Below, piece after piece: positions 6,321-30,275 of a stretch of 64,000 nucleotides of DNA. Where the stretch lies: NCBI GenBank assembly GCA_016177405.1, contig JACOVG010000021.1, forward strand, positions 14,434-78,433, read 5' to 3'. Numbering within the stretch: the stretch's first letter is position 1; the number at the start of each line of letters is the position of its first letter. The translations under genes and the position numbers were made by a program. This stretch comes from Candidatus Omnitrophota bacterium. GTDB taxonomy: Bacteria; Omnitrophota; Gorgyraeia; 1-14-0-20-64-10. The notes beneath the pieces are model-generated. The model was given only the letters and a program-made list of their open reading frames with translations. It did not search any database and had not been told where the DNA came from.

Positions 6321-8605
6321 CAGACCCGATCCTCCATCTTGAAGAGACGCATCTGGACCCACGAGAAGCTCATCGTGATGAAGAAAAGGAGGTACCCGAC
6401 CGCCGCGGCCCGCCCCATCTCAAACCGGTGGAACCCGGTCTCGTAGAGGTACCAGACCACCGTGGTGGTGGAGCCCAGGGGCCCGCCCTGCGTCATCGCG
6501 AAGATCTCCGGGAAGACCTGAAAGGCGTGGATGGTGTTGACCACCGTCGCCACCAGAAGAATCGGCTTCAGCTGCGGCAGGGTGATGTGCCTGAACTTCT
6601 GCCACTCGTTGGCCCCGTCGATGGCCGCCGCCTCGTAGAGCTCCGAGGGGATCGTTTGCAGGCCCGCCAAGAACAGCACCATGTAATAGCCGAAGCTCGC
6701 CCAGACGTTCATCATCATGATGGAAAGCAGGGCCAGCCGGGTGTTGAGGAGCCAGTTCGGCGTGGGCGGCGGCAGACTCAGCGCCCGCAGCCCCAGGTTC
6801 ACCAGGCCGCCGGGGGAATAGAGGTAGGTGAAGATGGTGGCGATCACGATGACCGAGGTGGCCACCGGCAGGAAGAGGCCCGCCTGGTAGAGGCCCTTCA
6901 GGGGAACCTTGGTGTTGATCAGAACCGCCGCGAAAAGGGCCAGCGCCATGGTGGGCGGGATGGTCCCCGCCGCGAAGAAAAACGTGTTCGCCAGGGCCCG
7001 GAGGAACTCGGGGCTGCGCCCGATCTCCAGGAAGTTCCTCAAGCCCACAAAGGTGAATTCGGAGCTCAACAGGTTGTAGCGGGCAAAGCTCAAGACGAGC
7101 GAATGCACGAGCGGCGTCAGGCTGAAGACCAGAAAGATGGCCAGCCAGGGCGACAGAAAAATCAGGCTCACCGCCAAATCCCGGGGCGAGCGGGAAACCC
7201 TCGCCGCGATCCCCCGCCCCCGCCGCCTGGCCAACAGCCAGAGGAACATTCCGGCCAGGCCCGCGGCCGCCAGCAGGCCGAACACCACCGCGTCGCTCAC
7301 CCCCGTCTTCACCTCGGGGCTGGCCAGGATTTCGTTGATGGCGGCGGCGGCCTCGGCCAGGGCCGCGCTGGGGCGGCGGTCCTTCAAGACGACCTCCTCC
7401 ACCGCGCGGGTGATCCACTCCTGCATCTCCACCCACCGGGGATGGGCCGGGGGGGCCACCGCGAACCGGACCTGGTCAAAAAAGAGCTTCTGCTCCGGGT
7501 GGGTCTTGTAATAAGGATGGTTGAGGGCCGACTTGGCGGTGGGGACGATGTTGCGCTGGGCCTCCACAATGGCCATCGCCTGCTCCTCTTCCATCAAGAA
7601 GAGGGCCAACTTGAGGGCCGCCTCCGGGTGCTTGGCGCTTTTTAAGACGGACAGGATCTCCCCGCCGGCAAAGGAGGCCGGCGTTCCCCGGAGGGCCGCC
7701 GGCCGGGGGCACAGGCCCACGCCGAAATTGAGCGTGGGATTCATCTGGGGAATCAGGGAGAAGTTCCAGGAACCGGAAATTTGGATGCCCACCCGGCCCT
7801 GGGCGAAGAGCTGGTTCACCTGGGTCTGACGCTCCACCAGCGCGTAGGGCTTGAGCATCCGGTAGAACTCCAGGGCCTCCACCACCGGCGGCTGGTCCAG
7901 CAGACAGCGCTTCCACCGCGAATCCAACACCTCGCCGCCGTTGCCCCAGGCGAAGGAAAGGAACTCCTGCCAGGGGGCGTACGGCTCCGCCACGTGGATG
8001 CCGATCCCGTAAACGTCCGGCCCCAGGGCGTCAACGGCGCTGGCGGCCTGGAGAAGCTCTTCCCAGGTGGCCGGGGGACGGTCCGGGTCAAGCCCCGCCC
8101 GGCCGAAGAGATCCCGGTTGTAAAAAAGGATGCGGGTCCCGGCCAGCCACGGCAAGCCGTAGATCCGCTCCTTGAAGGCGGCCGGCTCCCAGAGGAAATA
8201 CCGGTCCCGGATGTCCCGTGAGGCCTCGGTCAGATCGGTCAGGACGCCGGAGGAGGCGAACTGCGGCACCCAGTCGGTCCCCAGCTCGCACAGGTCCGGG
8301 GCGTTGCCGGCGGCGATCGAGGTGATGATCTTGTCCAGGCCGTAGTCCCAGGCCAGCTGTTGAAACCGCACCCGGATGCCAGGATTCTGGCGCTCGAACT
8401 TGGCCAGGAGGCCGCGCATCAGCTCCTCGCCCACCGAAAGCTCCCAGAAATCAATGGTGACTTCGGAGGCGAAGGCGGGTGCGGGCTTAAGGGCGAGGGG
8501 TGAAAGGAGAAGGAGCGTCATGGCGAGCCCGCCAAAGAATTTCGGCGGGCGAAGCAATCTCTCGATCACGGGGCTAAGTCTACCGCCGGAGGAATAGATT
8601 GACAA
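6320..8605 (-). CDS. Fused extracellular solute-binding protein (family 1, MalE-like) plus ABC permease (MalF/UgpA type)
   Basis: The 761-aa ORF is a single continuous frame. The N-terminal ~430 aa look like a periplasmic sugar-binding protein with the shared LAMT leader. The C-terminal ~300 aa form a six-TM permease with an EAA loop (AAAIDGANEWQKFRHITLPQLKPIL). The track start is a TTG at 8605; a GTG at 8567-8569 would give MIERLLRPPKFFGGLAMT, which is more plausible. Confidence 0.75.
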   Translation of the reverse strand: MSIYSSGGRLSPVIERLLRPPKFFGGLAMTLLLLSPLALKPAPAFASEVTIDFWELSVGEELMRGLLAKFERQNPGIRVRFQQLAWDYGLDKIITSIAAGNAPDLCELGTDWVPQFASSGVLTDLTEASRDIRDRYFLWEPAAFKERIYGLPWLAGTRILFYNRDLFGRAGLDPDRPPATWEELLQAASAVDALGPDVYGIGIHVAEPYAPWQEFLSFAWGNGGEVLDSRWKRCLLDQPPVVEALEFYRMLKPYALVERQTQVNQLFAQGRVGIQISGSWNFSLIPQMNPTLNFGVGLCPRPAALRGTPASFAGGEILSVLKSAKHPEAALKLALFLMEEEQAMAIVEAQRNIVPTAKSALNHPYYKTHPEQKLFFDQVRFAVAPPAHPRWVEMQEWITRAVEEVVLKDRRPSAALAEAAAAINEILASPEVKTGVSDAVVFGLLAAAGLAGMFLWLLARRRGRGIAARVSRSPRDLAVSLIFLSPWLAIFLVFSLTPLVHSLVLSFARYNLLSSEFTFVGLRNFLEIGRSPEFLRALANTFFFAAGTIPPTMALALFAAVLINTKVPLKGLYQAGLFLPVATSVIVIATIFTYLYSPGGLVNLGLRALSLPPPTPNWLLNTRLALLSIMMMNVWASFGYYMVLFLAGLQTIPSELYEAAAIDGANEWQKFRHITLPQLKPILLVATVVNTIHAFQVFPEIFAMTQGGPLGSTTTVVWYLYETGFHRFEMGRAAAVGYLLFFITMSFSWVQMRLFKMEDRV
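8517..8564 (-). repeat. Leader cassette copy (variant cgtcatggcgag...cgaagcaatctctc) encoding the signal peptide of the SBP-permease fusion
   Basis: cgtcatggcgag-cccgccaaagaatttcggcggg-cgaagcaatctctc; the core is the inverted repeat cccgcc/ggcggg. Confidence 0.7.
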
Positions 8606-8645: not shown

Positions 8646-9299
8646 ATGAAACCTAAGCTTCTGATCGCTTGCGATTTCGACGGAACGCTCACCCGGCAGG
8701 ACACCCTGGTGACGATCCTGGATTCCTTCGGCTCCCCTTCCTGGAGGGAAGTCCAGCAAAAGGTCGTTTCCGGTGAAATCCCGATCCGGGAGGGGCTCGC
8801 GGCGGAGATGGCCTCTGTCCGGGCCAACCGCGAGCAGTTGATCGAGCTTTTGACCCAGCAGGTTGGCGTGGATCCGGCTTTTTCCGGCTTCCTTCATCTG
8901 ACGCGGCGGGAGGGGGTGCCCCTGGTCTGCCTGACCGGCGGCTTCGACCTGTGCGTGGAGACGGTTCTCAAAAAGGAGGGGCTCTGGCCTCTGCCTTATC
9001 TTGCCAACCGGCTCCTGAAGGATAACGGCTCCTGGCATGTGGAGTTTCCGTACCCCTCGGCCACCTGCGCCGCCTGCGGCCACTGCAAGGCCGATCCGAT
9101 CCGCGGCTGGAACGAGCAGGGCTACACCACCGTCTTTGTGGGCAACGGGGTAACCGACCGCTGCCCGGCCCGGGTGGCCAACCTCACCTTCGCCAAGGAG
9201 GAGCTGGGCCAGTGGTGCCAAAGCCAGGGTCTGCCCTGGGTGCCTTACGAGAATTTCTCTGACGTCGAGCAGGAATTAAGGAGGAGGGAATGGATATAA
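8646..9299 (+). CDS. HAD-superfamily subfamily IB phosphatase, MtnX-like (2-hydroxy-3-keto-5-methylthiopentenyl-1-phosphate phosphatase family)
   Basis: Begins with the DFDGTLT HAD motif I, has the C-x-x-C-G-H-C-K Cys motif typical of MtnX-like proteins, and ends with the GNGVTD motif. Confidence 0.6.
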   Translation: MKPKLLIACDFDGTLTRQDTLVTILDSFGSPSWREVQQKVVSGEIPIREGLAAEMASVRANREQLIELLTQQVGVDPAFSGFLHLTRREGVPLVCLTGGFDLCVETVLKKEGLWPLPYLANRLLKDNGSWHVEFPYPSATCAACGHCKADPIRGWNEQGYTTVFVGNGVTDRCPARVANLTFAKEELGQWCQSQGLPWVPYENFSDVEQELRRREWI

Positions 9300-9973
9300 A
9301 AACGAGATTGCTTCGGGCCCTTGGGGCCCTCGCAATGACGACCACTTTTCTTTCGCCCCTCACCCTTGACCCTTCATCCGCTTACGCCTCGGTCAAGCAG
9401 GAGGTGTACGTCAGCGGGACGGTGGAGTCCTTCGGCGGCTACACCTTCACCGAGTCGCTCACCTTCACCGTGGACAAGCCCGGCTCCCGGGAGATCGGCG
9501 CCATCACCATGGAAGGCGTCTACAACGGGGAATACCCCTGGATCCTTCGGGCCTACACCGACAACTTCCACTACACCGGAATCGGGGGCGCCAGCCGCCC
9601 GGCGAGCGCCGCGGGGCTCGTGTCCAAGGACGGCCGCTTCGCGATCCCACTGGAGGTTCACTCTCCCCTGTACGACGAGGGGATCTGGCGCCGGGTCCCG
9701 GATCTAAGCGATCCGGATCCCATCCCCTACCAACCCGAGCCGGATCTGCGGCCGACGGTCTACACCGACTGCGTTCTGATGGGGATAGACCCCCGGAACG
9801 GCGCCTGGGTGGCGGGCCCGGACGGGGTGCTCTTCACCGCCGACGACTCGCTGCTGGGCGACTTCACCGCCAAGACCCCCTGCGAGATCCTGGTCCGGGC
9901 CAACGCCGACGCCGCCGCGGCCGCCGGCGAATATGAAACCTTCCTTTATCTCGAGATCGTCCCCGCCCCGTGA
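9290..9973 (+). CDS. Secreted protein of unknown function with the shared LAMT leader; paralog of 10881..11912
   Basis: The signal peptide is MDIKTRLLRALGALAMTTTFLSPLT. The block AAGLVSKDGRFAIPLEV is shared with 10881..11912 (AGLVSADGRFAIPLKL). The G.Y..F/L.LE-V/I C-terminus resembles a beta-strand terminus of pilin or spore-coat-U-like subunits. Confidence 0.6.
   Translation: MDIKTRLLRALGALAMTTTFLSPLTLDPSSAYASVKQEVYVSGTVESFGGYTFTESLTFTVDKPGSREIGAITMEGVYNGEYPWILRAYTDNFHYTGIGGASRPASAAGLVSKDGRFAIPLEVHSPLYDEGIWRRVPDLSDPDPIPYQPEPDLRPTVYTDCVLMGIDPRNGAWVAGPDGVLFTADDSLLGDFTAKTPCEILVRANADAAAAAGEYETFLYLEIVPAP
9304..9340 (+). repeat. Leader cassette copy (gagattgcttcg-gggcccttggggccc-tcgcaatgacg)
   Basis: Identical over ~38 nt to the reverse complement of 29509..29546. 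Confidence 0.8.
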
Positions 9974-10884
9974 AAAACCGGTGGTCATCGCGAGGCCCGG
10001 AGGGCCGTGGCGATCTCGCTTTAAAAACGGGATTGCTTCGTCCGCCAAAAATCATTGGCGGACTCGCAATGACGTTTTTATTTCTCACGACTGCCTTGGC
10101 GGTGGAGGTCAGCCCCACCCGGCTCGAGCAGGCCATCTCCGCCGACCAGCCGACCCTGGGGACCTTGGAAATCTCCAATCCCTCCTCCCGGGCGGCCCGC
10201 GTCCAGATCCAAACCGGGCCCTACCGCTACCTCGAGCCCAAGTTCAGGCTCCCCTCGGCCGAAGATTGGTTTCAATTCGAGCCGGCCGCCTTCAGCCTGG
10301 CCCCCGGAGCGTCGCTTACGGTTTCGTACACGATCACCCCGGCGGCCAACGTCCGGGACGACGCGGCCGCCGAGTACCTGGCCGCAATCCTGGTGGACCA
10401 GCTGCCGGAAGAGCCCAACGTCATTGCGAGGAGCAACAGCGACGAAGCAATCTCGCAAGCCTCGCCACAGAACGTTGGCGGGCAAGCCAAGGTCACCTTC
10501 GTGCCCCGCTTCGCCGTGCCGGTTTACCTCACCCTTCCGGAACGGGAGAAAAAGGAGCTGGAGCTTGCGGGGCTCACCGTCCGGGTCGGAGAATCGCCGG
10601 ACCTCTTGAGGTTCGGCGTCGCGCTTAAAAACACCGGCACGGTTCACCTTCGGCCAGCGGGCTCTTTGGTGATCCTCTCCGAGGCGGGGACAGCCGTCGA
10701 ATCCAGAACCCTGGGCAGATCCCTCCCCATCCTTCCGGGCGCCACCCTGGAGCTCCCGGCCCTGGTTCCCATGCCCGGGAGCGCGGGCCGGTACCGGGCC
10801 GCCGTCACGGTCCAAGCCGACGAAGCTCTCCTTCTGCAAAAAGAGATCGGCTTCGAGGTGACGCCCGAGGGGGCCGTGAAGTGA
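9970..10884 (+). CDS. Secreted two-domain beta-sandwich protein, PapD/pilus-chaperone-like fold candidate
   Basis: Has the LAMT leader, followed by two ~110-aa repeats with the chaperone-like pattern (VEVSPTRLE...TLEISNPSS.RAARVQI...FEPAAFSLAPGASLTVSYTI, and a second copy VTFVPRFAVPVYLTLPE...). The GTG start overlaps the stop of 9290..9973 (GTGA). Confidence 0.45.
   Translation: MKNRWSSRGPEGRGDLALKTGLLRPPKIIGGLAMTFLFLTTALAVEVSPTRLEQAISADQPTLGTLEISNPSSRAARVQIQTGPYRYLEPKFRLPSAEDWFQFEPAAFSLAPGASLTVSYTITPAANVRDDAAAEYLAAILVDQLPEEPNVIARSNSDEAISQASPQNVGGQAKVTFVPRFAVPVYLTLPEREKKELELAGLTVRVGESPDLLRFGVALKNTGTVHLRPAGSLVILSEAGTAVESRTLGRSLPILPGATLELPALVPMPGSAGRYRAAVTVQADEALLLQKEIGFEVTPEGAVK
10030..10074 (+). 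repeat. Leader cassette copy (gattgcttcg-tccgccaaaaatcattggcgga-ctcgcaatgacg, followed by tttttatttctc)
   Basis: Core inverted repeat tccgcca/tggcgga. About 60 nt are nearly identical to 10893..10950. Confidence 0.8.
10419..10455 (-). repeat. Inverted-orientation leader cassette copy embedded in-frame in CDS 9970..10884
   Basis: cgtcattgcgag-gagcaacagcgac-gaagcaatctcg is the reverse complement of the leader consensus. It is translated as NVIARSNSDEAISQA in the inter-domain linker. Confidence 0.7.
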
Positions 10885-11912
10885 AAAAAATGAGATTGCT
10901 TCGTTCGCCAAAGTTCATTGGCGGACTCGCAATGACGTTTTTATTTCTCCCCCCGGCTTTCGCCCAGAAGGCCCTGCGGATCGGGTCGGTCTCTTACGAT
11001 CAGCACGTCCACTCCACCGAGCTGATTAAGTTCACCGTGGCCGTCAAGAACAATGAGGCGACCACCCAGTTTGCCGAGGTGGACATCACCTTGACCAACG
11101 TGGAGACCGAGCAGGAGCTCACCCTGGTGCCCGTGCTCACCGGGAATGTCCTGGCCGGCCAGGAGTCTGTCCTGGTCACCACTTACCAGAACATCCCTGA
11201 CGGCACCTACACAGTCAGCTTTCCCCTTTTTGACGGCGACGGTGTCCGGGTGGACCGGGTCACCGGGTCCACCCCCATCCACATCGGCACCGAAACCGAA
11301 ACCCTGCAGGTCTTTCCGGAGGTGATTCATTTGGGAACCCTGCCGCCGGGCCGCGCGATGTTCCCGACGCCCATCGAGGTGCGCTGGGCTTTCTACCGGT
11401 TCAACCGTTTAAGACTCGATCAGCCCTTCTACATCCGGATTTACTCCGACAACGCCGCCCGCTACCGCGGCGTCCGGGGCGCCCTGCGGCGCAACTCGCC
11501 GGCCGGCCTGGTCTCCGCGGATGGGCGCTTTGCCATTCCGCTGAAGCTCTGGAACCTGAACTACGGCCCGGACATGCAGGAGGGGGGCTGGGACGCCGCC
11601 CTGGCCGGGCCGCCGCCTGTGGACGACGACGCCTTCTGGATCGGCCCGGAGCTTCTGGAGGGGGGCCGCAACCTCGGCTCGGCCAACTGGGTGAGGATCC
11701 CGGATCTTTCGGAGATGACCTCGGACCCGGTGAGCTGGCGGCGGCTGATCGGCCAGGACCCGTTCGACAACCGGTATGTCTCCGACTCCAATCAAACCGG
11801 AGACTTCACCCTAAAGAGCCCCTTCACCCTTTATCTGGCCGCCGAGGCGGGACCCACCGCCGTGGAAGGGGCCTACACCGCCAACCTCGTGGTGGAGCTG
11901 TGGGACCCGTAG
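10881..11912 (+). CDS. Secreted protein of unknown function with the LAMT leader; paralog of 9290..9973
   Basis: The signal peptide is MKKMRLLRSPKFIGGLAMTFLFLPPAFA. It shares the blocks named above and the C-terminal pattern GAYTANLVVELWDP. Confidence 0.6.
   Translation: MKKMRLLRSPKFIGGLAMTFLFLPPAFAQKALRIGSVSYDQHVHSTELIKFTVAVKNNEATTQFAEVDITLTNVETEQELTLVPVLTGNVLAGQESVLVTTYQNIPDGTYTVSFPLFDGDGVRVDRVTGSTPIHIGTETETLQVFPEVIHLGTLPPGRAMFPTPIEVRWAFYRFNRLRLDQPFYIRIYSDNAARYRGVRGALRRNSPAGLVSADGRFAIPLKLWNLNYGPDMQEGGWDAALAGPPPVDDDAFWIGPELLEGGRNLGSANWVRIPDLSEMTSDPVSWRRLIGQDPFDNRYVSDSNQTGDFTLKSPFTLYLAAEAGPTAVEGAYTANLVVELWDP
10893..10938 (+). repeat. Leader cassette copy (gagattgcttcg-ttcgccaaagttcattggcgga-ctcgcaatgacg, followed by tttttatttctc)
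   Basis: Read directly from the sequence. Confidence 0.8.
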
Positions 11913-13906
11913 GCGTCATGGCGAGGCGCAGCCGAAGCCATCTCGTTTTTGGATTGCTTGGGGCCCTTGCAATGACGGCGGGTCTGCTCACGACCGCTTC
12001 TGCGCAGGAGATCACGAGTCAGGAAACCCTTTCCCTGGGACGGGCCGACCAGCTTCTCCGCCAGAAGGCGTTCGATCAGGCCATGGAAGAGCTGGGGCGC
12101 CTGCCCAAGGAGTTCCACGAGGATCCGCTCTTCCGAGGCCATCTGGGCCGGGCCGCGGGCGCCCTTTACCGGACCGCCCGGAGAAGAACCTACCGGGAGG
12201 GGCTGGCCCCTTTTCGCGGGCGGGCGGCGGCCAGCGTCCGGGTGACCCACCGTAAGCAGGACTCCGGCCGGAATTCCGACCAGACCTCGGACAACCGCGG
12301 CTGGCAGATCAACGAGCGGCTGGAGACCACGTTGGGGCGGGAGGGCAGGATTAACGCCCGTTTTCTCCAGGAGGCGGACGGTTTCAAGAACGGCCACCGG
12401 GATCTTCGCTACCGCACGCTCCTGGTCGATTTCTTCAACGGTTCCTCCCACCTGGCCCTGGGAGATTCCGCCAGCTATGGCAGCCCCTACTTCCTGCGGG
12501 GCTCCCGGCTCCGGGGGGCCGACCTCCTTTTGCGCGGCGAAACCCACGAGCTTCAGTTGGTGGCCGGCGGCTACCCCTTCTGGCTGGAGTCCCGGGACGA
12601 GTACATTTATCCTCGGACCGTCTGGGGCTTCCGGGACAAATGGAATCTGATGGGAGAGCGCGTGAGCCTGGGGGCCGGCCTCATGCAGGCCAGAGATTCC
12701 GAGAAGATCCGGACGATCGACACGGCCAACCGCCCCCGGGACAATGTCGTCTACTCCCTGGAGCAGGCCGTGAGACTCGTCCCCGACGTCTGGTGGCTCA
12801 AGGCCTACGAGGCCTACAGCGTCACCGACGACGACCTCCTTGAGGAGCGCTTCGGAAACGCCCGGAAGCTCAAGGACACCGCCTTCCGGCTGGAGTCGGA
12901 CCTGATCCAGCCCTTTTTGAGATGGAGAAGCCGCTACGAACGGACCGGCCCTGAATTCCGGCTCCTCACCGATATCCCCTCCGGCTCGGTGGTGAACGCC
13001 AAAGGGATCACGGCCGACCGGGAATTCATTCAGCAATATCTGGATCTCGCCCCGCTGGGTCCGCTGGACCTGGACCTGGAGGCGAGCTGGTACCGCAACA
13101 GCCTGGACGGGCGGGACAACGTGGAGCAGACCCGCCAGCGGTGGGCCACGGTGGAGGCCGGCTTCCTGGTGCCCGAGGGCTGGCCCAAACCCAGGGTCCG
13201 CGGCACCGCCACCGAAACCCTCTCAAGCCCCGGTTCCGCCACCCGGGCCTCGCAAACCAGAACCTTTGATGTAAGAACCGATCTCACCCATCGCCTGGGG
13301 GACTGGTCCCTAAACGGCTTCGGCACCTTCAAGGCGGAGCACCCCCTCAAGGACAAAACCGCCTTTGACGAGCAAACCTCCTGGTCGGCCGGCTCCCAGA
13401 TTTCGCGCCCGCTGGGAAAACGCCTCTACTGGACGAGCCGCTACGAATTCCGTTTCTTCGATGAGGTCTTCGATGAGACGCGGATCCGGGACCACAGCGA
13501 CGAGATCAACAACAACCTCTCGGTCCGCCTCTGGAGCACCGCCTCGCTGGGGCTTCACCACAGCTTTCTCCGGGGAATGCTTCGGGGAACCGCCAGCGCC
13601 AAGAAGATCGAGGCCAACCGCCACACCGGAAGCGCCTCCCTCTCCTGGCCGTACGTCTGGACCAGGGCGGACAAGCGCCGCCGGCTGACCATTCACCCTT
13701 CGCTCGCCTACTACGTCAGCAACGTCACCAACAGCCTGGAAAGGCGGCCCATGGCCAGCGGCGGGCTCCGGCTGGCCTACGAGGCCTACCCGGACTGGAA
13801 GCTGGAGTTAAACGGCAATTTCCGCTGGGACGATGACGGCGAGGCCGACGAGGTCCGCACCGAGGAATCCCGCGTCTGGCTTTCCTTCACCACCCTCTGG
13901 CCGTAA
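11900..13906 (+). CDS. Large secreted protein, candidate outer-membrane beta-barrel (usher/porin-like)
   Basis: Has the LAMT leader (MARRSRSHLVFGLLGALAMTAGLLTTASA). The 668-aa sequence is rich in alternating aromatic/polar strands and Arg/Tyr/Trp, and the C-terminus (SRVWLSFTTLWP) is barrel-like. The true start may be the internal ATG near 11918. Confidence 0.45.
   Translation: MGPVGVMARRSRSHLVFGLLGALAMTAGLLTTASAQEITSQETLSLGRADQLLRQKAFDQAMEELGRLPKEFHEDPLFRGHLGRAAGALYRTARRRTYREGLAPFRGRAAASVRVTHRKQDSGRNSDQTSDNRGWQINERLETTLGREGRINARFLQEADGFKNGHRDLRYRTLLVDFFNGSSHLALGDSASYGSPYFLRGSRLRGADLLLRGETHELQLVAGGYPFWLESRDEYIYPRTVWGFRDKWNLMGERVSLGAGLMQARDSEKIRTIDTANRPRDNVVYSLEQAVRLVPDVWWLKAYEAYSVTDDDLLEERFGNARKLKDTAFRLESDLIQPFLRWRSRYERTGPEFRLLTDIPSGSVVNAKGITADREFIQQYLDLAPLGPLDLDLEASWYRNSLDGRDNVEQTRQRWATVEAGFLVPEGWPKPRVRGTATETLSSPGSATRASQTRTFDVRTDLTHRLGDWSLNGFGTFKAEHPLKDKTAFDEQTSWSAGSQISRPLGKRLYWTSRYEFRFFDEVFDETRIRDHSDEINNNLSVRLWSTASLGLHHSFLRGMLRGTASAKKIEANRHTGSASLSWPYVWTRADKRRRLTIHPSLAYYVSNVTNSLERRPMASGGLRLAYEAYPDWKLELNGNFRWDDDGEADEVRTEESRVWLSFTTLWP
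11913..11975 (+). repeat. Composite of an inverted leader-cassette copy (cgtcatggcgag-gcgcagc-cgaagccatctcg) immediately followed by a direct copy (ggattgcttggggcccttgcaatgacg)
   Basis: Read from the sequence. The inverted half begins at the stop codon of 10881..11912, and the direct half encodes the FGLLGALAMT of the next gene. Confidence 0.65.
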
Positions 13907-13910
13907 CGTC

Positions 13911-16900
13911 TTACGCGGCGGTGCGCAGGGGTTCGATCTCTTCGAGGATTCTTTCCGGGGTAAGGCCGCGGACGCCGAGTTCCTTAAGGGCGGCCAGGTA
14001 CCACTCGATCCAATTCTGATCCACTTCTCGAATCACAAAGTCAGGCGAGGGAAGCTGGACGCGCGCCATGGCCTCGTTGAGCGCTCTCCGGTGATCGGCC
14101 TCATCGCCGGGAAGGTAAACGTAGGTTACCGCTTCCAGGAGGCGCCGGGCCAGAGGATCGGAAAGCCGCGCTTGGGCCTGGGCCAGCTCCTGGGCCGTGG
14201 CCACCCCGGCCGCCCGGATAGGAAGCTCCTGCTCGCCTAGTCGAAGCTGAACCGCCAGCCGCAGAAGCTCCAGCACCCGCGCATCCCCCTTCCCCGTATC
14301 CACCACAAACCTCATCGGTTTCGTCACCGGTTCGGCAACCGGCGCCTGAACCCCCACCGGCTTCTCCTCCAGGCCGGATTCGTAACCGATCAGGGGATAA
14401 ACTAGAAGGGCAGCATTGAGGGGCCTAAAGGGCCGCTCCACCCCCTTGCCTCCTGCCGGCTGAGGGCGACGAGGAGAAGAACGGAGGTTGGTGCCGTCCC
14501 ACTGGTTTACATCTTGGCTGCCGCCAAGAAGCAAAGCGTCTCTGGCGCCCAACTCCTTAAGAAGAGAAGCCAACTGATGTACCGTTACGCCAGAAAGCCG
14601 CTCGCCCATTCTTTCTCCAAACATCGAAAGGAAGATAAGTTTCCCCGCGGGGTCAATCCCAATGGCAGAGAAGGAAGCCTGCGTCGTCTTGGGATTCCAT
14701 CCCACTCGGTCAGGCCGCCAGTCCAGTCCAAGAGGACGGCCTCGTTCATCACGCTTTATAACCTCAGCTTCCTCGATCTGATCCGCCACAAGCTCTCCAT
14801 TTCGAAGCAGTGCCGGGCCGGAAATCGCATGAGAGATACCGCCTGTAACGAGCTGATTATTCTTGATCTCAACGGTCTCAAGGCCCAGGCGCTCTAATGG
14901 CGCTAACACAAATACGGTAAAGCGGCCATCCAGGGGGCGATATTCACTTTGAAAGAGACCCCTCTTCTTATCCGTCTTTCGAATCAGTCGGCCATCTACA
15001 ATCAGAAGCCCAAGCGGCTGCCAGAAGTTGGATTGGAAGCTGTTGGAAGCGTAGATGAGGCGCGGGGCTTGTTCTTCTTCGGCTGATCCTCTGCCTTCCT
15101 CAATAATCTCTTGGAAATGCCGGCCAGGCAGCTGATCGTCGGAAAGGGCGGGATCCCCCAGCATCTGCGGGAGTGTATCTCCCGGCAAATCTTGATCTAG
15201 AATTTCGGGGTTAAACCAGGAGACCACCTGAACCTGGCGCGAATCGACTAAGAAAACCTGACCGCTGGCTTGCTGGGTTCCGGTTCTCAAAGTCACTGAT
15301 CGAATGGCACCGATTCCGCTGGGGTCAGATTTGGGGTCCCCCACAACGAACTCCTCCAGGCCAGCGGAGGGAGGTCCTTGATTCTTCGGAGGGCTCGAGA
15401 GAGGAGGCATCTTCTCGAGAAAGGAAAGGGCCACCCAGCCGCTCATCCCTTGCAGCCGAGCTCGTTTGCCCTGGACATCCACCTCTTCCACAACCCACTC
15501 TCGAAGTCGGCGATCATGAACACGATCGCCCGCTTGGATCGGCAGCTCGGCGGGCGGGGAGGGTTTCGTGTCCGCCGCGGTTCCCCCCAATTGAAAGTGA
15601 GCATCGGCCCTGCGAATCGCCTCCCCTAAGGAGGCAGAGGTCCTGTCCGATACTGCCTGGTTGAGGTATTCGACGGCTGCTGCAAGAGCCCGCTCCTGGG
15701 AAGGGCTTCCTTCTCTGACGGCCATCTTGAAGCCCGCCGCGTAGGCCAGGCCGCCCAGGGCCGAACCGGTGAGATCGCCCAGAGAACCCTCCTGAACCTC
15801 CGTGTCTCCTCTTTCCGGCGCACGCAACATCTCGGCTCGGACGCTTGAGATGATCCGCTCAAGCTGGTTGGCGCGCTGTTCGGCGGAGAATTCTTTTTCT
15901 CCTATCTCGCGGCCCTCCGCGAAGACCCTCATCTTTGCCAGCAGCCAGGGAAAAATGATGGGCAGCCCATAAGGACCGCGCAACGTCTTTTCTTCCTGGA
16001 AGGCACCGCTTCGAACAAAGAGGAGCATCTCCATGGCTCCGGCAAACCAATCCGCTGCCTTGCCTTTATCCGCCTGCAGGATTCTGGCAATCTCCCTGCC
16101 GTATGCGGCCGCCATTCGATCCACAGGGAGGGCATTCGCCACCCAGACAGACCAAGCCGCCTCTCCGGGTCCCAATCTCTTCCTGCGAGAGCCCATTCCG
16201 TCTGCCGTGAGAAACTGCCTGGACTTCACCGCAAGTTCCTGAATCAGACGTCCTTGTTCTGCTTCTGATGGCTGCCCTTCCTTCCAGGCCTCTTCAATCG
16301 CGGGTAGGTTCATCTCGGCATAAGCGGCCAACCCTAAGGGGCGGGGCTCCGAATCAATCAGGCCGTTGGCAAGAGCCCTCCTTTGGACGGTTCCCGCTTC
16401 ATCGCCGGGAAACAGGGCAGCCAAGACCCACTCCCGGGTTTCGCGAAGCGATCCCTTTTCCTCTTCCGTAAAACCCTCGCTTGCCGCCTGGAAGAGCACC
16501 GCCAGCAACTGGGGGCTTATCCCCAGGGATTCTATGCCATGCTGCAGATACCACCGCCGAACCAAGGCCGCCTCCCTTATTCCCTCCTGTACAGCCCTTC
16601 GGCAAGCCTGGGAAAACTTCGGGTGGTGGGTCTTCACGTATTCCAACCAAGCTTGATCCGCCTGCCGAAGGCGGCCGTGAAAGGCCCTGCCGGTCCTCAT
16701 CGCCCTCTCGCTGAAATAGGCGCCCGACAGAGAAGCTCTTCCCGTCACGACCTGCTCATCGCGCTGGGGGCTGACCTCAAACGCCTCGCGCATCTTCGTA
16801 ACAAGCTCAGTCAGCATGCGCCGGTAGGCAAGCGCCTCTCGGCCATGGCCCGCGGCGTAGCGCGCCAAAGAGGCCGTATCTCCCATAAAAACCGCGTACG

Positions 16901-19900
16901 ACTCCTCCAATTCAATAAGCTTTTCCAGCAAGAGGGCGACTACCAGGGGATGGGTTTTCGAAAAGAGCTCTTTAAGAAAGGCCTCCCGGTAGTAGGTGTA
17001 GGATTGGATCAGCGCCTGGCGGTCAGGCAACCGGATGGCACCGGACGGCACCGCTCCTCCCTCTTCTGCCGCACGCGCAAGACGCATCCTCCCCAAGGTC
17101 TCCAGGACGCCAGCGGCCATCTGGCCCATCATCTGCACCGAAGGGCTCTCTCGGAGCACCTCGGGATGTGACGTAAAGCGCTTCCAATTCTCTGCTCTCG
17201 TCAGGAAAATCCGCTGAAGCGCTTCGGAGGCCTTGATGTTTTGGGGGGTAACGCCGGTGTGGGATACCTGGGCCTCTTGCTGTAACTTCGGAATACGGGC
17301 CTGCTCTATGGCATCGCGAACATAGATGGCCAACAGCATGCGTATAACCGCCAGGGGACCCCCTTCACCCTGAAGCCGTTCGGTCTGATCAAGAATTTGA
17401 AGCGCCTGCTCGTTGGGTAGCCTGCCCACCATCCTGCCGAAAGCCCACAGGAGGCGATCCGTGCCGTCGTGCATCATGGACAGCAGGAGATCATCCAGCA
17501 AGATCGCCCTGACCGATTCCGCTGGAGGATCTTTGCCGAGGAAGACCTCGGACACAAATCGCTGGATCTCCGGATCGTCGACCATCCACGACAAACCCTC
17601 CAGAAATAAAACCCTTTGGAATGAAGCCGCCTGGGAGAGCTCTTCGGACGTTTTCTTCATTCGCTGGTTCGGCTCTTTCACGGTGCGAATCTCCCTTAAA
17701 AGGGATTGCGTCTCGGCATCTACCATCGCATTCGCGTACAGCTCAAAGGGGAGAACCCCCAGCCCGTATTGAAGCCCCCTGGAGAGGACGTAAAGCCGGT
17801 TGGCAGCCGCGGCTCGTTCCCCGGCATGGTGGCGCATGGCCATCGCCGTCTCCGAAGTCCGGCCCATCGAAAGCACCTCCCCAGCCACTCCATGAATCTC
17901 GATAAGCTTTTCCAATTTCCGAAAACGGGCAAAGGAAGCGAGGTCGCCCTCTAATGCCTCCGTGAGAGACTGCTGTACCTCTGTGCAATAGCGAACCACC
18001 TCGGCAATGGTCTCTATGGCCCGCTGGACCTTCTCTTGGAGCTCTTCCTTTTTGAGCCGGCCCTCCTCTGCGGCCAAAATGGTTTCCATGATCTGGGCTC
18101 TCAAGCGGGCCACATAGGAATCGTTTCTAAGGGCGCTCACGACGCCATCGTAAAGATCGCCAAGCCCGCTCCAGATGCGCACCCTTTCTTGATACAGCGC
18201 CTCTATCTTGAGGTAGTGGGAGGGTTCGATGGGCCCTCGCTTGGCTTCGAGCTCGCGAATCTGGGACTCCTTGACTCCATCAAGAAGATAGGCCAAGAGC
18301 AACTGCCCGTGAGCTTTCCATGGAACTCCTCCTGAAAGGCGCAGCGCCGCTTTCACCGCGGCATGAACCCGAATACCGTCCTGGACTGGAAGGTCCCGAA
18401 CCGCAAGGGCCAGGGAGGACAAGGCCTCATCGGAGTGTTCCTCCTGGGAGGAACTCAACACCGCATGGAGGATGGCGTCTCTCAACAGCTCCGCCTGTGG
18501 TGTCCCTGCAAGAAAAATATCTACCAGCCACGCCTGCACCTCTGGGTGTTCTCTTACCCAAAACAGCGCCTTAAGAAAAGCGGCCCGCTGGCTCTCATCG
18601 AAGGTCGGCAGACGCCTCTCCGTTAAATCCAGTCTGCGGTTCGCGTCTTTCTCTGCAACCAAATCCCCAATCAACTCCTTGACCCTCTCATCCCATGGAG
18701 CGCTCCCTGATCCCTCCTCCTGCTCCTCCAGGCCGGAGGGGGGAGACGGCGTTGGCGCGTGACGGATGAGGACCCGAGAGAGCTTTCTGACCAATTGATC
18801 CCGCGTTACCTTATTCTTGGGATCCGGATTTACCAAGTTCTTCCATCTAAAAGTAGACCGTTCCTTCTGAAGACGGAAATCATCCTCGTCTTTTTCCATT
18901 CTAAGGGTGAGGAAATGATCCCCTAACAGCCCCCCCAAACTCAACTCCCCTTGAGCATTTCGGATTCCCCGGCCTTTCCTTGCCTCCATCACCCACCCCG
19001 AACGGAGCTCAACCCCCTCTTTTTTTAAGCCATTGATGCCGGCCACAAAATCCTTGGGCCTCCTGCTGTCAATCACGATATCCCCAATATGAAGCCGAAG
19101 TTTTCGTTCAACGGGAAGCAAGGGAAACCAGGGTTTTTGCTCAACGATTTCGACCTTAACCTGGGGGATCTCCACACTCGGTGAGGGCGGCTGCGGCGGC
19201 GCTGCAGGCTTGGCCACCGGCGCTGGGGGTTTAAGGAGTGCCGCTTTGGGGATGTGCCTCGGTGTAACTTGTTGACCTTCGCTCGCCTTCTTGTACCAAA
19301 CCCAGTGTGTTGAAAGAAATTCAAACACCTCTTGGGCACTCTGTTGGTCCAGGATTTCCTTTTCTTGCCTGATGTGTGTCAGCCAATCCCACGCCGAGAT
19401 GGCAGCCTGCTCATGATCTGAGTTAGGCGCGGGCGGCGCTGCCGCCGCCACCCTTAAGCTCATCTCGGTGGCTTTCGCGTGCACATACTCCAAGAGCGGT
19501 ATCCAGCCGTCCACACGGTACCGCTTCCCCTCCTCCAGGCCGGATAAAAATTCTCTGGCAAAATCCCGAAGCTGTTCCGGCGTTACGCTGACTTCCCGGA
19601 GCATCTTCTGGGCATCGTCGGTTTTCATCGCTTGGTAGGTTTTTTCATTTCCTGTTATGATGACTCCTCCCATCTCGATGGACGCAATGCCGATTCCATC
19701 CAAATGCCTTTCCTTAGCCCACGAGGAGGCATAACTCACCCTGGGAAATATGAAGATTCTGGCCGCCCCTTCCTTTGGCCCACGGGCGAAAAGGACGTTG
19801 TAACCCAGCATTTCCCTCCTCGCAATTCTCCCGTCCAAAAGTCTCAAAAACCGATTCCCGGCATCTGCCAAATCATCTCGCAAAGAGCCTTCCAGCACCA

Positions 19901-26628: not shown

Positions 26629-27174
26629 TTACCAGGGCTGGCGGCTCTCCTCGCCGGGGACGGCCCCGAAGGTCTTGTCCGGCTTGCCGTCGAAATCTTC
26701 GTCCACCCGCCCCCCGGCGATCTTGGTGCCCCCCAGGGCATAGTAGAACCAGGCGTCCGGTTTGCCATCGTGGTTCTTGTCCATGATCATGAGGTCCTTG
26801 ATGCCCTCTTTATAGTAAGACCAGGCGTCGGGTTTGCCGTCGAAGTTGAGATCCGCCCGTTCCCGAATCGCCAAGCCCTTCTCCATCTGACGCAGGAGGT
26901 CCGGCTTGCCGTCGCCGTTGCGGTCCACCTCGGAACGCTCCGGTTTTCCATCCTTGAAGTAGATCACGATCTCCCGCTTGCCGTCCCCCTGCCGGTCCCT
27001 CTCCACCCGGACCAGGAGATCCCCCTCGTAGAACTTCCACTCATCCGGTTTGCCGTCCTTGTTCGTGTCCAGGGCCTCAACCCGCTCCTTGGCCGCGAAA
27101 GCGGCGGAAGGCAAAAGAAACAGCGCCGTCATTGCGAGGACGCGAAGCGGACGAAGCAATCTCTCTTTTTTCAT
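26629..27174 (-). CDS. Secreted calcium-binding-like repeat protein with six D-x-[DN]-x-DGKPD repeats
   Basis: Has the LAMT leader (MKKERLLRPLRVLAMTALFLLPSAAFA). Repeats: DTNKDGKPDEW, DRQGDGKRE, DRNGDGKPD, DLNFDGKPDAW, DKNHDGKPDAW, DEDFDGKPD. These are EF-hand/excalibur-like DxDxDG loops. Confidence 0.65.
   Translation of the reverse strand: MKKERLLRPLRVLAMTALFLLPSAAFAAKERVEALDTNKDGKPDEWKFYEGDLLVRVERDRQGDGKREIVIYFKDGKPERSEVDRNGDGKPDLLRQMEKGLAIRERADLNFDGKPDAWSYYKEGIKDLMIMDKNHDGKPDAWFYYALGGTKIAGGRVDEDFDGKPDKTFGAVPGEESRQPW
27127..27165 (-). repeat. Leader cassette copy (cgtcattgcgag-gacgcgaagcggac-gaagcaatctctc)
   Basis: Read directly from the sequence. Confidence 0.75.
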
Positions 27175-27766: not shown

Positions 27767-28657
27767 TTACTGCCGAACCACCCGAAGGTCCCGGTGAACG
27801 GTCAAGGTCAGCCCTTGGCCGCGGGACTTCTCCACCTGAAGCTGAACCTCCTTGAGGGGCAAGTAGCGGGTCGCCTGTCCGTCCACGGCGGCGACACGGT
27901 CGCCGGCGAGCAATCCCGCGCCCGAGGCGGAACCTCCCGGGTCCACCGCGGCCACGGTCAACCCCATCCTCTCCGTGGAAAACCGGAAGCCCGGCCAGGC
28001 AGGCTGCGCGGGGCCGGCGGGGATGAGTTCGATCCGCCGCGCGAGGGTGATCTTGGCCATCGACCCGCCGGGCCCCAGGAGGAGATACGCCGCCTCCCGA
28101 ACCGGCAAGAAGGCCAGCGACTCTCCCCAGACCGCCGTCAACCGGTCGCCGGCGGCGATTCCGGCGCGCTGGGCCTGCGACCCGGGCTCCACCGACTGGA
28201 CCTCGGGGTATCCCTCGCCGGCCTTCAACCGCAGGCCCCAGCGCGTCAAGAGCTCGCCGGACAAATCGGCGGACAGCGTAAGCGAAGGGACGCCGCGCTT
28301 GGCTTTGAGATCGGCCGCCCGGTTCAGGGCGTCATCGGCCTCCTGAAATTCCGGGTAAATCTGCAGGGCCTTGCGAAAGAGCCCCTGGGCAACGGTGAAA
28401 TCGCCGCCGGCCAGCGACCGGTTTCCCAGGTACAGGTAGTTGCGCTCCGGATCGTCAAAGAAGATCTCGTCAATCTCGCCGCGCGCGATCACCCGTTCAC
28501 CGTCCACGGTGCTGACCACAATCCTGTCCCGGTGTTCCTCCACCACCAGCCCCTTCAGCTCCTCGCCGGAGGTGAAGTAGATCGCGTCCGCGAAAGCGGT
28601 GGAAAGAAATAAGAACGACATTGCGAAGGCCCCAAGCAATCTTGTTTTCATTCGCAC
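27767..28657 (-). CDS. Secreted tandem-PDZ-domain protein
   Basis: Leader MRMKTRLLGAFAMSFLFLSTAFA. Two PDZ-like segments (VEPGSQAQRAGIAAGDRLTAVWG and VDPGGSASGAGLLAGDRVAAVDG) follow an N-terminal TPR-like helical region. Confidence 0.6.
   Translation of the reverse strand: MRMKTRLLGAFAMSFLFLSTAFADAIYFTSGEELKGLVVEEHRDRIVVSTVDGERVIARGEIDEIFFDDPERNYLYLGNRSLAGGDFTVAQGLFRKALQIYPEFQEADDALNRAADLKAKRGVPSLTLSADLSGELLTRWGLRLKAGEGYPEVQSVEPGSQAQRAGIAAGDRLTAVWGESLAFLPVREAAYLLLGPGGSMAKITLARRIELIPAGPAQPAWPGFRFSTERMGLTVAAVDPGGSASGAGLLAGDRVAAVDGQATRYLPLKEVQLQVEKSRGQGLTLTVHRDLRVVRQ
28617..28645 (-). repeat. Degenerate leader cassette copy (cgacattgcgaaggccccaagcaatcttg)
   Basis: Read directly from the sequence. 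Confidence 0.6.
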
Positions 28658-29556
28658 AGCTTCTTGTAGCTTTCGTAGTGGTGAATCGCCAGGCCGCCGA
28701 AGCCCGCTTGGCCGCCCACGGCGTTCACGATCTTCTTGAGCTCCCGGCTCATCACGTTGCAGGTGGTCCCCCCGAAACTCACGTACGCGGGGAAAAGGTC
28801 CTCCTGGGTTTCCTGGCCGATCAAGACCGGCTTGCCCACTTGGCCCCCGTACTCCAGTTCCAGCCGCACCAGGCGCAGGGTTCCATCCGATCCCTCGGCG
28901 AAATTCCGGTAAGCCATGACGGTGACGGTGTCCACCGTGTCCAGGATGTGCTGGGTGGGGCTCTTGACCGAGCCTCGCCAGAGAATCCGGTAGCTGGCGT
29001 CGTCGTCAAACCAAAAGGGAATGTCCACCCCGAAAATCACGGGAACCGGCTCCTTCCGTATCGCTTCGGCCATCTTCGCGTTCAAATCCAGGTAGCCCCC
29101 CAGAAGCTCGCCCGGCCGTTCGTTCCAGGCCTGGGTCAGCAAATACACCTCCACATCGGAGTGAATCCCGTCGAAGCGCTCCTCGGGCGGGGCCTGGCGG
29201 TTCATCTGAAGGACCGCGCCGGTCCAGGCCATGGGAAGGGTGTGGTAGCGGCTCTTCCCCCAGCGCGGGTCGCCCGCCAGGGCATGGACCGAAAGCCCCA
29301 TCTCGTGGGCCTGGCGGTTAAAATCGCGGTACGTCCGGTCCCAGGGGGGCTCCAGGTTGTAGGCCGACAGGTACAGCGTGCCGATTTGGTGCCTTCGGCA
29401 GAAAGCCAGGAGTTTTGCCTTGGATTCTGGTTTGGCGGCGATGCGGGCGTCCCAGACCCACATCGCCCGGGGCGGCTCCTCGGCGAAAACGGAGGGGAGA
29501 AATAAAAACGTCATTGCGAGGGCCCCAAGGGCCCGAAGCAATCTCGTACCCCTCAC
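28648..29556 (-). CDS. Secreted TIM-barrel glycoside-hydrolase-like protein (GHL/DUF4015-type, family uncertain); paralog of the central domain of 32083..34419
   Basis: Leader MRGTRLLRALGALAMTFLFLPSVFA. Conserved blocks shared with 32083..34419: MWVWD/SWVWKYD, AHEMGLSVHALAGDPRW/AHEAGVHVEALQGNPLW, GKPVLIGQETQ/GKKVVIGVETQ, GFGGLAIHHYESYKKL/SFGGLAVHAYDSYRLL. Confidence 0.6.
   Translation of the reverse strand: MRGTRLLRALGALAMTFLFLPSVFAEEPPRAMWVWDARIAAKPESKAKLLAFCRRHQIGTLYLSAYNLEPPWDRTYRDFNRQAHEMGLSVHALAGDPRWGKSRYHTLPMAWTGAVLQMNRQAPPEERFDGIHSDVEVYLLTQAWNERPGELLGGYLDLNAKMAEAIRKEPVPVIFGVDIPFWFDDDASYRILWRGSVKSPTQHILDTVDTVTVMAYRNFAEGSDGTLRLVRLELEYGGQVGKPVLIGQETQEDLFPAYVSFGGTTCNVMSRELKKIVNAVGGQAGFGGLAIHHYESYKKLCE
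29509..29546 (-). repeat. Leader cassette copy (cgtcattgcgag-ggccccaagggccc-gaagcaatctcg); exact reverse-complement match to 9304..9340, preceded by gagaaataaaaacg
   Basis: Read directly from the sequence. Confidence 0.8.
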
Positions 29557-30266
29557 TCGAGGGTGATGTCGTCGAGGTAAACGGTTCCCAGCCCCGCCCC
29601 CTCGGGATAAAGTTCCCCCTCGAAACAGATCGAGATGGAAGCCAATTTGGTGTAGTCAATGAAGTAGGAGGACAACGGAATCACCGCCTTCTGCCATTCG
29701 GCCGTCAACCGGCCCGCCGGCAGGTACTTGCCGATCTCCTCGGACTTGACCGAATCCCCCACCCGGTCCCAGTGCCGGTCGGCCAGCCCCACCATAAAGT
29801 TCTCCTCCCCCTTGTCTCCGCGGACCCAGAAGGTGACTGCCTGGTAGCCGGAGGCGTCAAAATACTGCTCCCCCACCATCGGGGGGCTGGGTTGGTCGGT
29901 GGTGGGCGCCACCAGATAACCGCTTGTCTTTAGAAGGGTGTAATAGCCGCACCAACCGCCCATGCCGTAGGGTCCGCCCTCTGACTGCTTGTCGTAACGG
30001 ATCAGGAGCACGCTGCTCTTGGCGCCGTTCACCTCTTCCTCCACCCGGCTCATCATGATCCGAGAGGGGGCCTTCACATAAACATTGGCCCGCCCGCCGG
30101 CCCGGTTCTGGATCTCCTCCCCTTCAAAATCGTCCACGAGGAGCGGCTCCGCCGCGAAAGCGGTCGTGAGTCGCGCGTCGTGAGTCGTGAGTAGAAAGAC
30201 GCAGAAGGCAAGCCCTACAGTCCTTACCCATGACCCATGACCCATGACCCATGACTTTTTCTTCAT
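29553..30266 (-). CDS. Secreted single-domain protein carrying the recurrent CBM-like beta-sandwich module
   Basis: Module motifs: PLLVDDFEGEE..., GGWCGYYTLL, VTFWVRGDKGEENFMVGLADRHWDRVGDSVKSEEIGKYLPAGRLTAEWQKAVIPL, GTVYLDDITLE. Two heptanucleotide repeat tracts lie in the signal-peptide codons. Confidence 0.65.
   Translation of the reverse strand: MKKKSWVMGHGSWVRTVGLAFCVFLLTTHDARLTTAFAAEPLLVDDFEGEEIQNRAGGRANVYVKAPSRIMMSRVEEEVNGAKSSVLLIRYDKQSEGGPYGMGGWCGYYTLLKTSGYLVAPTTDQPSPPMVGEQYFDASGYQAVTFWVRGDKGEENFMVGLADRHWDRVGDSVKSEEIGKYLPAGRLTAEWQKAVIPLSSYFIDYTKLASISICFEGELYPEGAGLGTVYLDDITLE
30164..30191. repeat. Heptanucleotide tandem repeat (tcgtgag x3 plus variant tcgcgcg) inside the signal-peptide codons of 29553..30266
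   Basis: tcgtgag tcgcgcg tcgtgag tcgtgag, read from the sequence; it encodes LTTHDARLTT. Confidence 0.75.
30226..30253. repeat. Perfect heptanucleotide tandem repeat (cccatga) x4, 10 nt downstream of the start codon of 29553..30266
   Basis: cccatgacccatgacccatgacccatga; on the coding strand this is (TCATGGG)x4, encoding SWVMGHGSWV. Each unit is 7 nt, so it is frame-shifting and carries out-of-frame ATGs. Confidence 0.8.
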
Positions 30267-30275
30267 TTTGTCCTC

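Follow-up and report, generated by a model that had tools for sequence, protein, structure and literature searches.

An in-frame copy of a widespread palindromic repeat in a secreted PapD/WxLIP-like protein gene of an Omnitrophota bacterium

A stretch of 64,000 nucleotides from contig JACOVG010000021.1 of a Candidatus Omnitrophota bacterium (assembly GCA_016177405.1), here called the window and numbered from its first letter, contains 10-11 copies of a short palindromic repeat, one of which lies in inverse orientation and in frame inside a protein-coding gene. This intragenic copy occupies 10417..10455 on the minus strand, within a coding sequence (9970..10884, plus strand) for a secreted protein, and it is a solo copy recognised by its exact arms and by an nhmmer profile, the canonical arrangement GATTGCTTCG..CTCGCAATGAC being found on the minus strand. 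A preliminary interpretation made from the DNA letters (the sequence-only reading) had described an inverse, in-frame repeat copy at this place, had given its translation and had located it between two beta-sandwich domains, and all of this was confirmed by our analysis of the gene and by an AlphaFold2 model of its product. The copy is probably a tolerated insertion of a repeat that occurs, with identical arms, in many bacterial phyla.

The host gene and its intragenic repeat copy

The gene 9970..10884 is real, as judged from its homologs and syntenic orthologs. Ten homologs were found, with 39-51% identity, and three of them (on contigs L121-L123) share the gene order of an SBP-permease on the opposite strand, an HAD hydrolase, a protein of 220-250 amino acids (aa) and the host gene. 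The protein has 304 aa from a GTG start and is annotated at 271 aa as HYS41_04450 (100% identical); its protein cluster has a single member on one contig, and a Pfam scan of the open reading frame (ORF) gave no match. The AlphaFold2 model has a mean pLDDT (predicted local distance difference test) of 81, with beta-sandwiches at residues 46-146 and 180-297, and Foldseek matched this fold to WxLIP (9i25_C, E 8.6e-12) and to the pilus chaperones Caf1M, FimC and PapD. Homologs, synteny, model and Foldseek matches together identify the product as PapD/WxLIP-like with two beta-sandwich domains. The inter-domain linker, residues 150-171, has a pLDDT below 50, and because this linker joins both beta-sandwiches in the model, the 13-codon insert lies exactly in the hinge.

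On the plus strand the copy reads AACGTCATTGCGAG-GAGCAACAGCGA-CGAAGCAATCTCG, 39 nt in all, and its reverse complement is CGAGATTGCTTCG-TCGCTGTTGCTC-CTCGCAATGACGTT. Positions 10419-10430 (CGTCATTGCGAG) are the exact reverse complement of CTCGCAATGACG, positions 10443-10452 (CGAAGCAATC) are that of GATTGCTTCG, and all 27 arm positions agree with the family consensus. When the window was searched by nhmmer with a profile of 60 long-type copies, drawn from other phyla only, the intragenic copy was its best match (E = 9e-13, envelope 10417-10455). The 12-mer arm, with at most one mismatch, occurs nine times in the window against 0.55 expected, and the two-arm pattern, with at most two mismatches per arm, occurs ten times against 0.18 in shuffles. 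The copy encodes 13 codons (NVIARSNSDEAIS, residues 150-162, N150-S162) in the context ...EEPNVIARSNSDEAISQASP..., and all three of its plus-strand frames, or five of the six frames overall, are open. The insert had earlier been given as 37 nt; the family consensus extends to CGAG...GACGTT, and therefore the natural unit here, which also keeps the frame, is 39 nt (13 codons).

Both arms are also present in other copies in the window, including the copy in the leader of the same gene (10031-10074), and the intragenic copy had been taken for an inverse duplicate of that leader cassette. This interpretation is correct for the arms, 12 nt (GATTGCTTCGTC) and 14 nt (CTCGCAATGACGTT), which are all that the two copies have in common, but not for the centres. 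The leader centre is a 22-nt perfect hairpin, whereas the intragenic centre is the 12-nt TCGCTGTTGCTC, without a good hairpin, which is not a derivative of the leader and belongs to the long type of centre, TCGCTTCGCTC with its variants, that recurs in other phyla; a near-identical centre, TCGCTGACGCTC, is found in the ortholog contig L121. Folded as single-stranded DNA, the intragenic copy is no better than its shuffles (z = -0.6). There is no homology past the element between the flanks of this copy and those of any local copy, a promoter and terminator scan of 9900-10700 found no site, and a tRNA/tmRNA scan was likewise empty.

The alignment of orthologs, proposed in the sequence-only reading as a way to look for a missing insert, gave the expected outcome, since a counterpart of NVIARSNSDEAIS is missing in nine of the ten homologs, the three syntenic orthologs among them, and the tenth (P0006) has a non-significant likeness that is discussed below. 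From ILVDxLP to VPR the linker measures 41 aa here and 32, 36 and 25 aa in the syntenic orthologs, in whose linker DNA no trace of the arms was found. Removal of the 39 nt leaves an ortholog-like linker, LPEEPQASPQNVGGQAK (LPEEPQASPQNV.., LPEEPQASPQ), close to LPAEPDQPQEGKAR (LPAEPDQPQEG..) of L123, and the empty-site junction to be expected is ...GAAGAGCCC joined directly to CAAGCCTCG....

Spread and anatomy of the repeat family

What had been regarded as a local leader cassette is far more widely distributed. The exact pattern GATTGCTTCG-N3-30-CTCGCAATGAC was found in at least 120 genome stretches, in contigs from one genome per species, belonging to at least 15 phyla, and the two-arm pattern was also present in at least 120 viral contigs of IMG/VR, some of which may be prophage or host sequence. 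By our own estimate (21 fixed bases, 28 gap lengths, 1.2e12 positions) about 8 matches would be expected by chance in the whole genome collection. The matches come from Bradyrhizobium, sphingomonads, Gammaproteobacteria, Desulfobacterota, Chloroflexota, Bacteroidota, cyanobacteria, Melainabacteria, Patescibacteria, Zixibacteria, Planctomycetota, Helicobacter, Sporomusa, Armatimonadota, Gemmatimonadota, Myxococcota and Omnitrophota, and the breadth is not a binning artefact because several of these taxa are isolates with complete genomes. A single 1.76-Mb Novosphingobium replicon has the repeat in at least 40 places. Among 50,697 cultured phage records, only 3 gave a match, and a partial one.

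The unit is 24-51 nt long, and between the arms GATTGCTTCG and CTCGCAATGAC it has a variable centre, usually a hairpin, the commonest centres being CTTCG (short type) and the long type already mentioned. About half of the copies are arranged in doublets of fixed polarity, in which an inverse copy is followed, after ~25 nt, by a direct copy; among the matches listed, the orders (-,+) and (+,-) were counted at 53 and 4 genome loci and at 35 and 3 viral loci, respectively, and the commonest gap inside doublets was 22-32 nt. The median doublet is 83 nt long, and the doublet ends, GTCATTGCGAG and CTCGCAATGAC, are 11-nt terminal inverted repeats. No target-site duplication was detected at 83 doublets, where direct repeats of 2-8 nt, at offsets of 0-2, were about as frequent as in mismatched flanks, and the flank consensus of the family consists only of cTG upstream and G downstream. 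GCGNAGC or GCGNNAGC is present on the inverse strand of 222 of 355 copies, compared with a mean of 144 and a maximum of 164 for shuffled centres; sequences of the GCGNAGC type are very stable DNA mini-hairpins (PMC13037366). When the same 355 copies are read in inverse orientation, a stop occurs in any one given frame in only 3-12% of them. In other phyla the copies are mainly intergenic, and the ATG of the element opens a long ORF there in 15% of cases, against 16% in a control frame.

Two tandem arrays were also observed, one in a Chloroflexus metagenome-assembled genome (MAG; L007:1372-1506), where three units recur about every 50 nt and the spacers are near-identical, and one of four units with a 33-nt period in a viral contig (L169:2695-2818); evidently the repeat can multiply locally besides dispersing. 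Database searches did not place it: Rfam gave no family for the whole window at the gathering threshold and only chance-level matches in E-value mode for the site and a Bradyrhizobium doublet, Pfam and NCBIfam had no family for the repeat-encoded peptides, and literature searches for the arm sequences or encoded peptides returned only unrelated papers and primers.

In-frame doublets were found in two further genes, each in a low-GC gammaproteobacterial MAG. The UvrA gene L112:1761-4490 (minus strand, 910 codons stop to stop) contains one that is read as VIASKAKQS...IATSPLAPRND between the ABC modules, with Pfam domains on both sides. The GuaA (GMP synthase) gene L088:4073-5743 (plus strand, a 557-codon ORF) contains another, VIARPRSGAAIS..EIASEGAPRND, inside the GATase domain, and the Pfam GATase match spans the insert. 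Furthermore, in Novosphingobium the spacer between the dioxygenase and VOC genes of plasmid pNL2 has a doublet that the orthologous spacers of two related plasmids do not have; these spacers are replaced wholesale, so that presence and absence leave no footprint and a clean pair of filled and empty sites was not obtained.

Repeat copies in signal-peptide leaders

The host gene is part of a four-gene operon (9290-13906) encoding secreted proteins of 227, 304 (the PapD/WxLIP-like protein), 343 and 668 aa, with GTGA start/stop overlaps and conserved synteny with an upstream HAD hydrolase. The 668-aa protein has a weak match to DUF481 and may be an outer-membrane barrel, and the operon as a whole could encode an Omnitrophota system for surface assembly, of the chaperone-usher-like or WxL-like kind.

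Most of the other copies in the window are in the leaders of this and other genes. The direct copy at 10031..10074 (plus strand), in the signal-peptide region of the host gene itself (..GLLRPPKIIGGLAMT..), has an outer stem AAAAACG/CGTTTTT around its 22-nt hairpin centre and folds as single-stranded DNA at -19.5 kcal/mol (z = -7.0). It forms a (-,+) doublet with a degenerate inverse copy (GTCATCGCGAGG..GTGGCGATCTCGC) at 9983..10017 (minus strand), at the junction of genes 9290/9970. The leader of gene 9290-9973 has a copy at 9306..9340 (plus strand, MDIKTRLLRALGALAMT..), which is translated because a Shine-Dalgarno sequence and an ATG lie upstream of it, and the leader of gene 10881-11912 has one at 10894..10937 (plus strand, MKKMRLLRSPKFIGGLAMT..). 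A second (-,+) doublet, at the junction of genes 10881/11900, has an inverse copy as its left half (11915..11942, minus strand) and a direct copy as its right half (11952..11977, plus strand), the latter in the leader of gene 11900-13906 (..GLLGALAMT..). The remaining copies are on the minus strand, in the leaders of a sugar-binding-protein/permease fusion gene (8517..8559, ..RLLRPPKFFGGLAMT..), of gene 26629-27174 (27128..27161, MKKERLLRPLRVLAMT..), of the PDZ protein gene 27767-28657 (28617..28641, short and diverged, MRMKTRLLGAFAMS..) and of gene 28648-29556 (29510..29543, MRGTRLLRALGALAMT..). The copy 29510-29543 is identical to 9306-9339 over 34 nt, and the two genes are unrelated.

In eight secreted proteins the direct copy is read in a single frame and orientation, as RLL(R/G)...(L/F)AM(T/S) in the signal peptide, with the Shine-Dalgarno sequence and start codons upstream of the repeat and a hydrophobic stretch and an AxA-type site downstream. 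The syntenic orthologs on L121-L123 have ordinary signal peptides without RLLR..LAMT, which points to lineage-specific leader copies; in this lineage, it seems, the repeat has become part of the DNA that encodes signal peptides. Other repeat-like strings were noted in leaders: two CBM30-like proteins (29553-30899) have LLTAYCLPLTAAFA and LLTTHDARLTTAFA in their signal peptides, the leader of ortholog P0004 (L121:3883-4060) contains tandem CCACGCT/GTACGCT repeats, and the leaders of P0009 and P0011 have LTAHSLQL. Repeat DNA of several kinds seems to occur readily in the leaders of this phylum.

Elsewhere in the window, ORF 13911-21974 encodes 2687 aa with ARMT1-like, DUF4922 and NAGPA domains, and three consecutive giant ORFs of 2165 aa, 4338 aa and more than 3304 aa occupy 34451-63998 on the minus strand, the last of them running past the window end.

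Relation to known elements and origin of the intragenic copy

The sequence-only reading had compared the copy with Rickettsia palindromic elements (RPEs) and with transposable elements of the miniature inverted-repeat kind (MITEs), of the Correia type. RPEs (Ogata et al. 2000, as summarised in PMC10969869) are about 100-150 bp long and form ten Rickettsia-specific families that are confined to Rickettsia (PMC10969869). The analogy is apt, and the in-frame UvrA and GuaA copies strengthen it: in both cases a palindromic repeat lies in frame in unrelated protein genes and is translated where the fold tolerates it, here in the hinge, in UvrA and in the GATase domain of GuaA. The repeat differs from RPEs in its length, 26-45 nt for the unit, 39 nt here and a median of 83 nt in doublets, and in arms that stay identical over viral contigs and at least 15 phyla, and it is by size and host range that we set it apart. 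The analogy with Correia-like MITEs was not borne out, given that no target duplication was found at the 83 doublets. The MITEs considered were Correia/NEMIS, ERIC and Coxiella QMITE1/2, some of which likewise give rise to in-frame fusions, as QMITE2 does in enhC (PMC10969869, PMC5896051). The repeat resembles these elements as a small non-autonomous repeat whose doublets have the terminal inverted repeats GTCATTGCGAG / CTCGCAATGAC, the solo intragenic copy being half of such a MITE-like doublet unit, but the unit is far shorter than a typical MITE. Neither the window nor the surroundings of sampled copies showed a parent insertion sequence (IS) whose ends match, and no systematic IS search was made.

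REPs (repetitive extragenic palindromic sequences) have a conserved 5' GTAG/GTGG tetranucleotide and, in enterobacterial ones, the loop GCGNAGC (Nunvar et al. 2010, PMC2817692); they are species- or genus-specific, and RAYT (TnpA-REP) transposases mobilise REP/BIME/REPIN sequences (PMC2817692). Our repeat shares with REP/REPIN sequences the short imperfect palindrome, the many and mostly intergenic copies, the polarised inverted doublets with a short spacer, the lack of a detected target-site duplication and a loop that is often GCGNAGC on one strand. Unlike REPs, it has arms that are identical across phyla, GATTGCTTCG and GTCATTGCGAG, and GT[AG]G is absent next to the stem; no RAYT was found near the copies, either in the window ORFs at 1-34 kb or within 2 kb of the 355 copies. 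Because it does not have the size and host range of RPEs, the GTAG of REPs or the target duplication of MITEs, we place the repeat in none of the named families but, as a new member, in the broad class of short palindromic repeats that can be translated.

We consider it likely, with a probability of roughly 0.75, that 10417-10455 is a tolerated in-frame insertion of a REP/REPIN-like element behaving like an RPE. A solo copy would have entered, in inverse orientation, the hinge-coding part of the periplasmic PapD/WxLIP-like gene in this Omnitrophota MAG lineage, and it would have survived there by virtue of its whole number of codons (13), the lack of a stop in the inserted orientation and the low-confidence, length-variable linker that received it. 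Since it is in frame, stop-free and in a tolerant linker, the insert can be regarded as a translated passenger peptide that needs no function of its own, and the 13 extra amino acids are probably harmless. We infer that element DNA already in existence was inserted at this place. The copies in UvrA, GuaA and the leaders likewise imply that the element entered coding DNA repeatedly where the protein tolerates it. That the repeat is or was mobile at the DNA level, as had been suggested, is supported for the past, indirectly and by sequence comparison, by its absence from orthologs, the lineage-specific leader copies, the plasmid spacers, the identical 34-nt copies and the spread over phyla and viral contigs. 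Single-strand chemistry of the REPIN or IS200/IS605 type is suggested by the polarity of the doublets, by the hairpins and by the missing target duplication, and one may speculate that the repeat spreads in the form of a hairpin of single-stranded DNA, with an HUH/RAYT-like or other enzyme mobilising it in trans and making no target duplication.

Several observations weigh against an insertion. No empty site has been shown at the nucleotide level, the nearest homolog being only 51% identical, and the boundaries of the copy (37, 39 or 40 nt) and any target duplication are uncertain. The arms are intact at every one of their 27 positions while the centre hairpin is lost, a combination that could indicate either a recent insertion or selection on the arms. 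Pfam searches of the window ORFs at 1-34 kb revealed no transposase-like or other mobilising gene, and no recurrent transposase was found within 2 kb of the 355 copies, where clustering of 2,636 ORFs yielded only phage structural proteins, from viral loci. Finally, the linker of P0006 has, at an equivalent position, GACGAAGAAATCGCG, which matches the arm at 13 of 15 nt and encodes the peptide VISESDEEIA. This gene (L244:106-1128) is the most divergent of the homologs, with a linker ~36 aa longer (codons about 150-225); the score of its match was reached by 67 of 1000 codon shuffles, nhmmer gave no match, and we regard the likeness as due to chance or at most to an independent old insertion, since decayed.

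The P0006 peptide is also what would favour an ancient coding segment whose likeness to the repeat is accidental. We find this hardly credible, because the P0006 match is not significant, the arms agree fully with the family consensus and the segment is missing from the other homologs; the absence from homologs and the profile E-value of 9e-13 together effectively refute it. A local origin without transposition or any element-specific mobilising enzyme, in which another copy in the genome, such as the inverse half of a nearby doublet, would have been the source through gene conversion, template switching or illegitimate recombination, is unlikely but is the alternative with most in its favour, given that seven copies lie within 3.5 kb at 8.5-12 kb, that two doublets there have inverse halves, that no transposase was seen in the window ORFs or near copies elsewhere, and that the identity of 9306-9339 with 29510-29543, together with a further 15 nt shared downstream by three leaders, suggests copying between genes. 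The centre of the intragenic copy is, however, unlike that of every other copy in the window and matches the cross-phylum long type, and its flanks have no homology to any local copy. Local copying is hard to separate from the insertion that we favour.

The pair formed by the leader copy and the intragenic copy suggests two further explanations. As a functional RNA element, the inverse copy would base-pair in the mRNA with the one in the leader, with an effect on translation or on processing by RNase III, and the minimum free energy fold of 10015-10470 does pair both arms (14 + 12 bp, ~345 nt apart), enclosing the stretch that codes for the N-terminal domain; z is -4.5 for the region, and neither arm has lost a position. 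In silico, however, pairing is expected of any inverted repeat, and this region is translated, so that ribosomes would unwind the pairing; by itself, the leader copy folds into a very stable local hairpin. Moreover, the arrangement is present in no homolog, and among the other genes of the window there is none in which an inverse copy follows downstream of a leader copy, so we regard a role of this kind as improbable. An invertible DNA switch, in which the ~340 bp between the two copies would invert and turn the gene off, is more improbable still. The sequence-only reading had allowed for inversion of this segment of ~345 bp, and, as in an inverton, 10077-10416 has identical inverted arms on either side, 14 nt and 12 nt long. 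These arms of 12-14 bp are all that favours it, and RecA-dependent exchange generally needs roughly 20-25 bp. Unlike in an inverton, no recombinase, integrase or invertase domain was present in the 24 ORFs scanned at 1-34 kb, a scan from which the giant ORFs at 34-64 kb were left out; the inverted form, whose junction would read GGCGGACTCGCAATGACGTTGGGCTCTTCCGG, would truncate the protein at stop codons after about 83 residues, and the family is widespread as doublets with no sign of a role as recombinase sites.

An insertion of repeat DNA into the hinge of this periplasmic protein, together with the copies in UvrA and GuaA of other bacteria, means that Rickettsia is not the only group with palindromic repeats translated in frame. 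The repeat explains recurrent peptide strings such as VIARS..DEAIS, SLRGAKRRSN, DCFASLAMT and LLRFARND in many predicted proteins, and it carries a warning for annotation, as start codons and N-terminal extensions around repeat copies are unreliable. It also offers a tractable evolutionary case in which residues of linkers and signal peptides come from repeat DNA. The family, with arms identical across phyla, compatible with coding and apparently undescribed, appears more notable than a single passenger insertion, and the identity of the arms raises the question of which conserved machinery recognises them. A broader interpretation, which we offer only tentatively and consider rather doubtful, is that the repeat is a pan-bacterial coding-compatible element with identical 10-/11-nt arms, whose spread would depend on its hairpin and possibly occur via phages, and which would have colonised genes recurrently (uvrA, guaA) and been co-opted in the leaders of at least eight secreted proteins; if this were true, the copy in the chaperone hinge would be a visible step of element-driven protein evolution.

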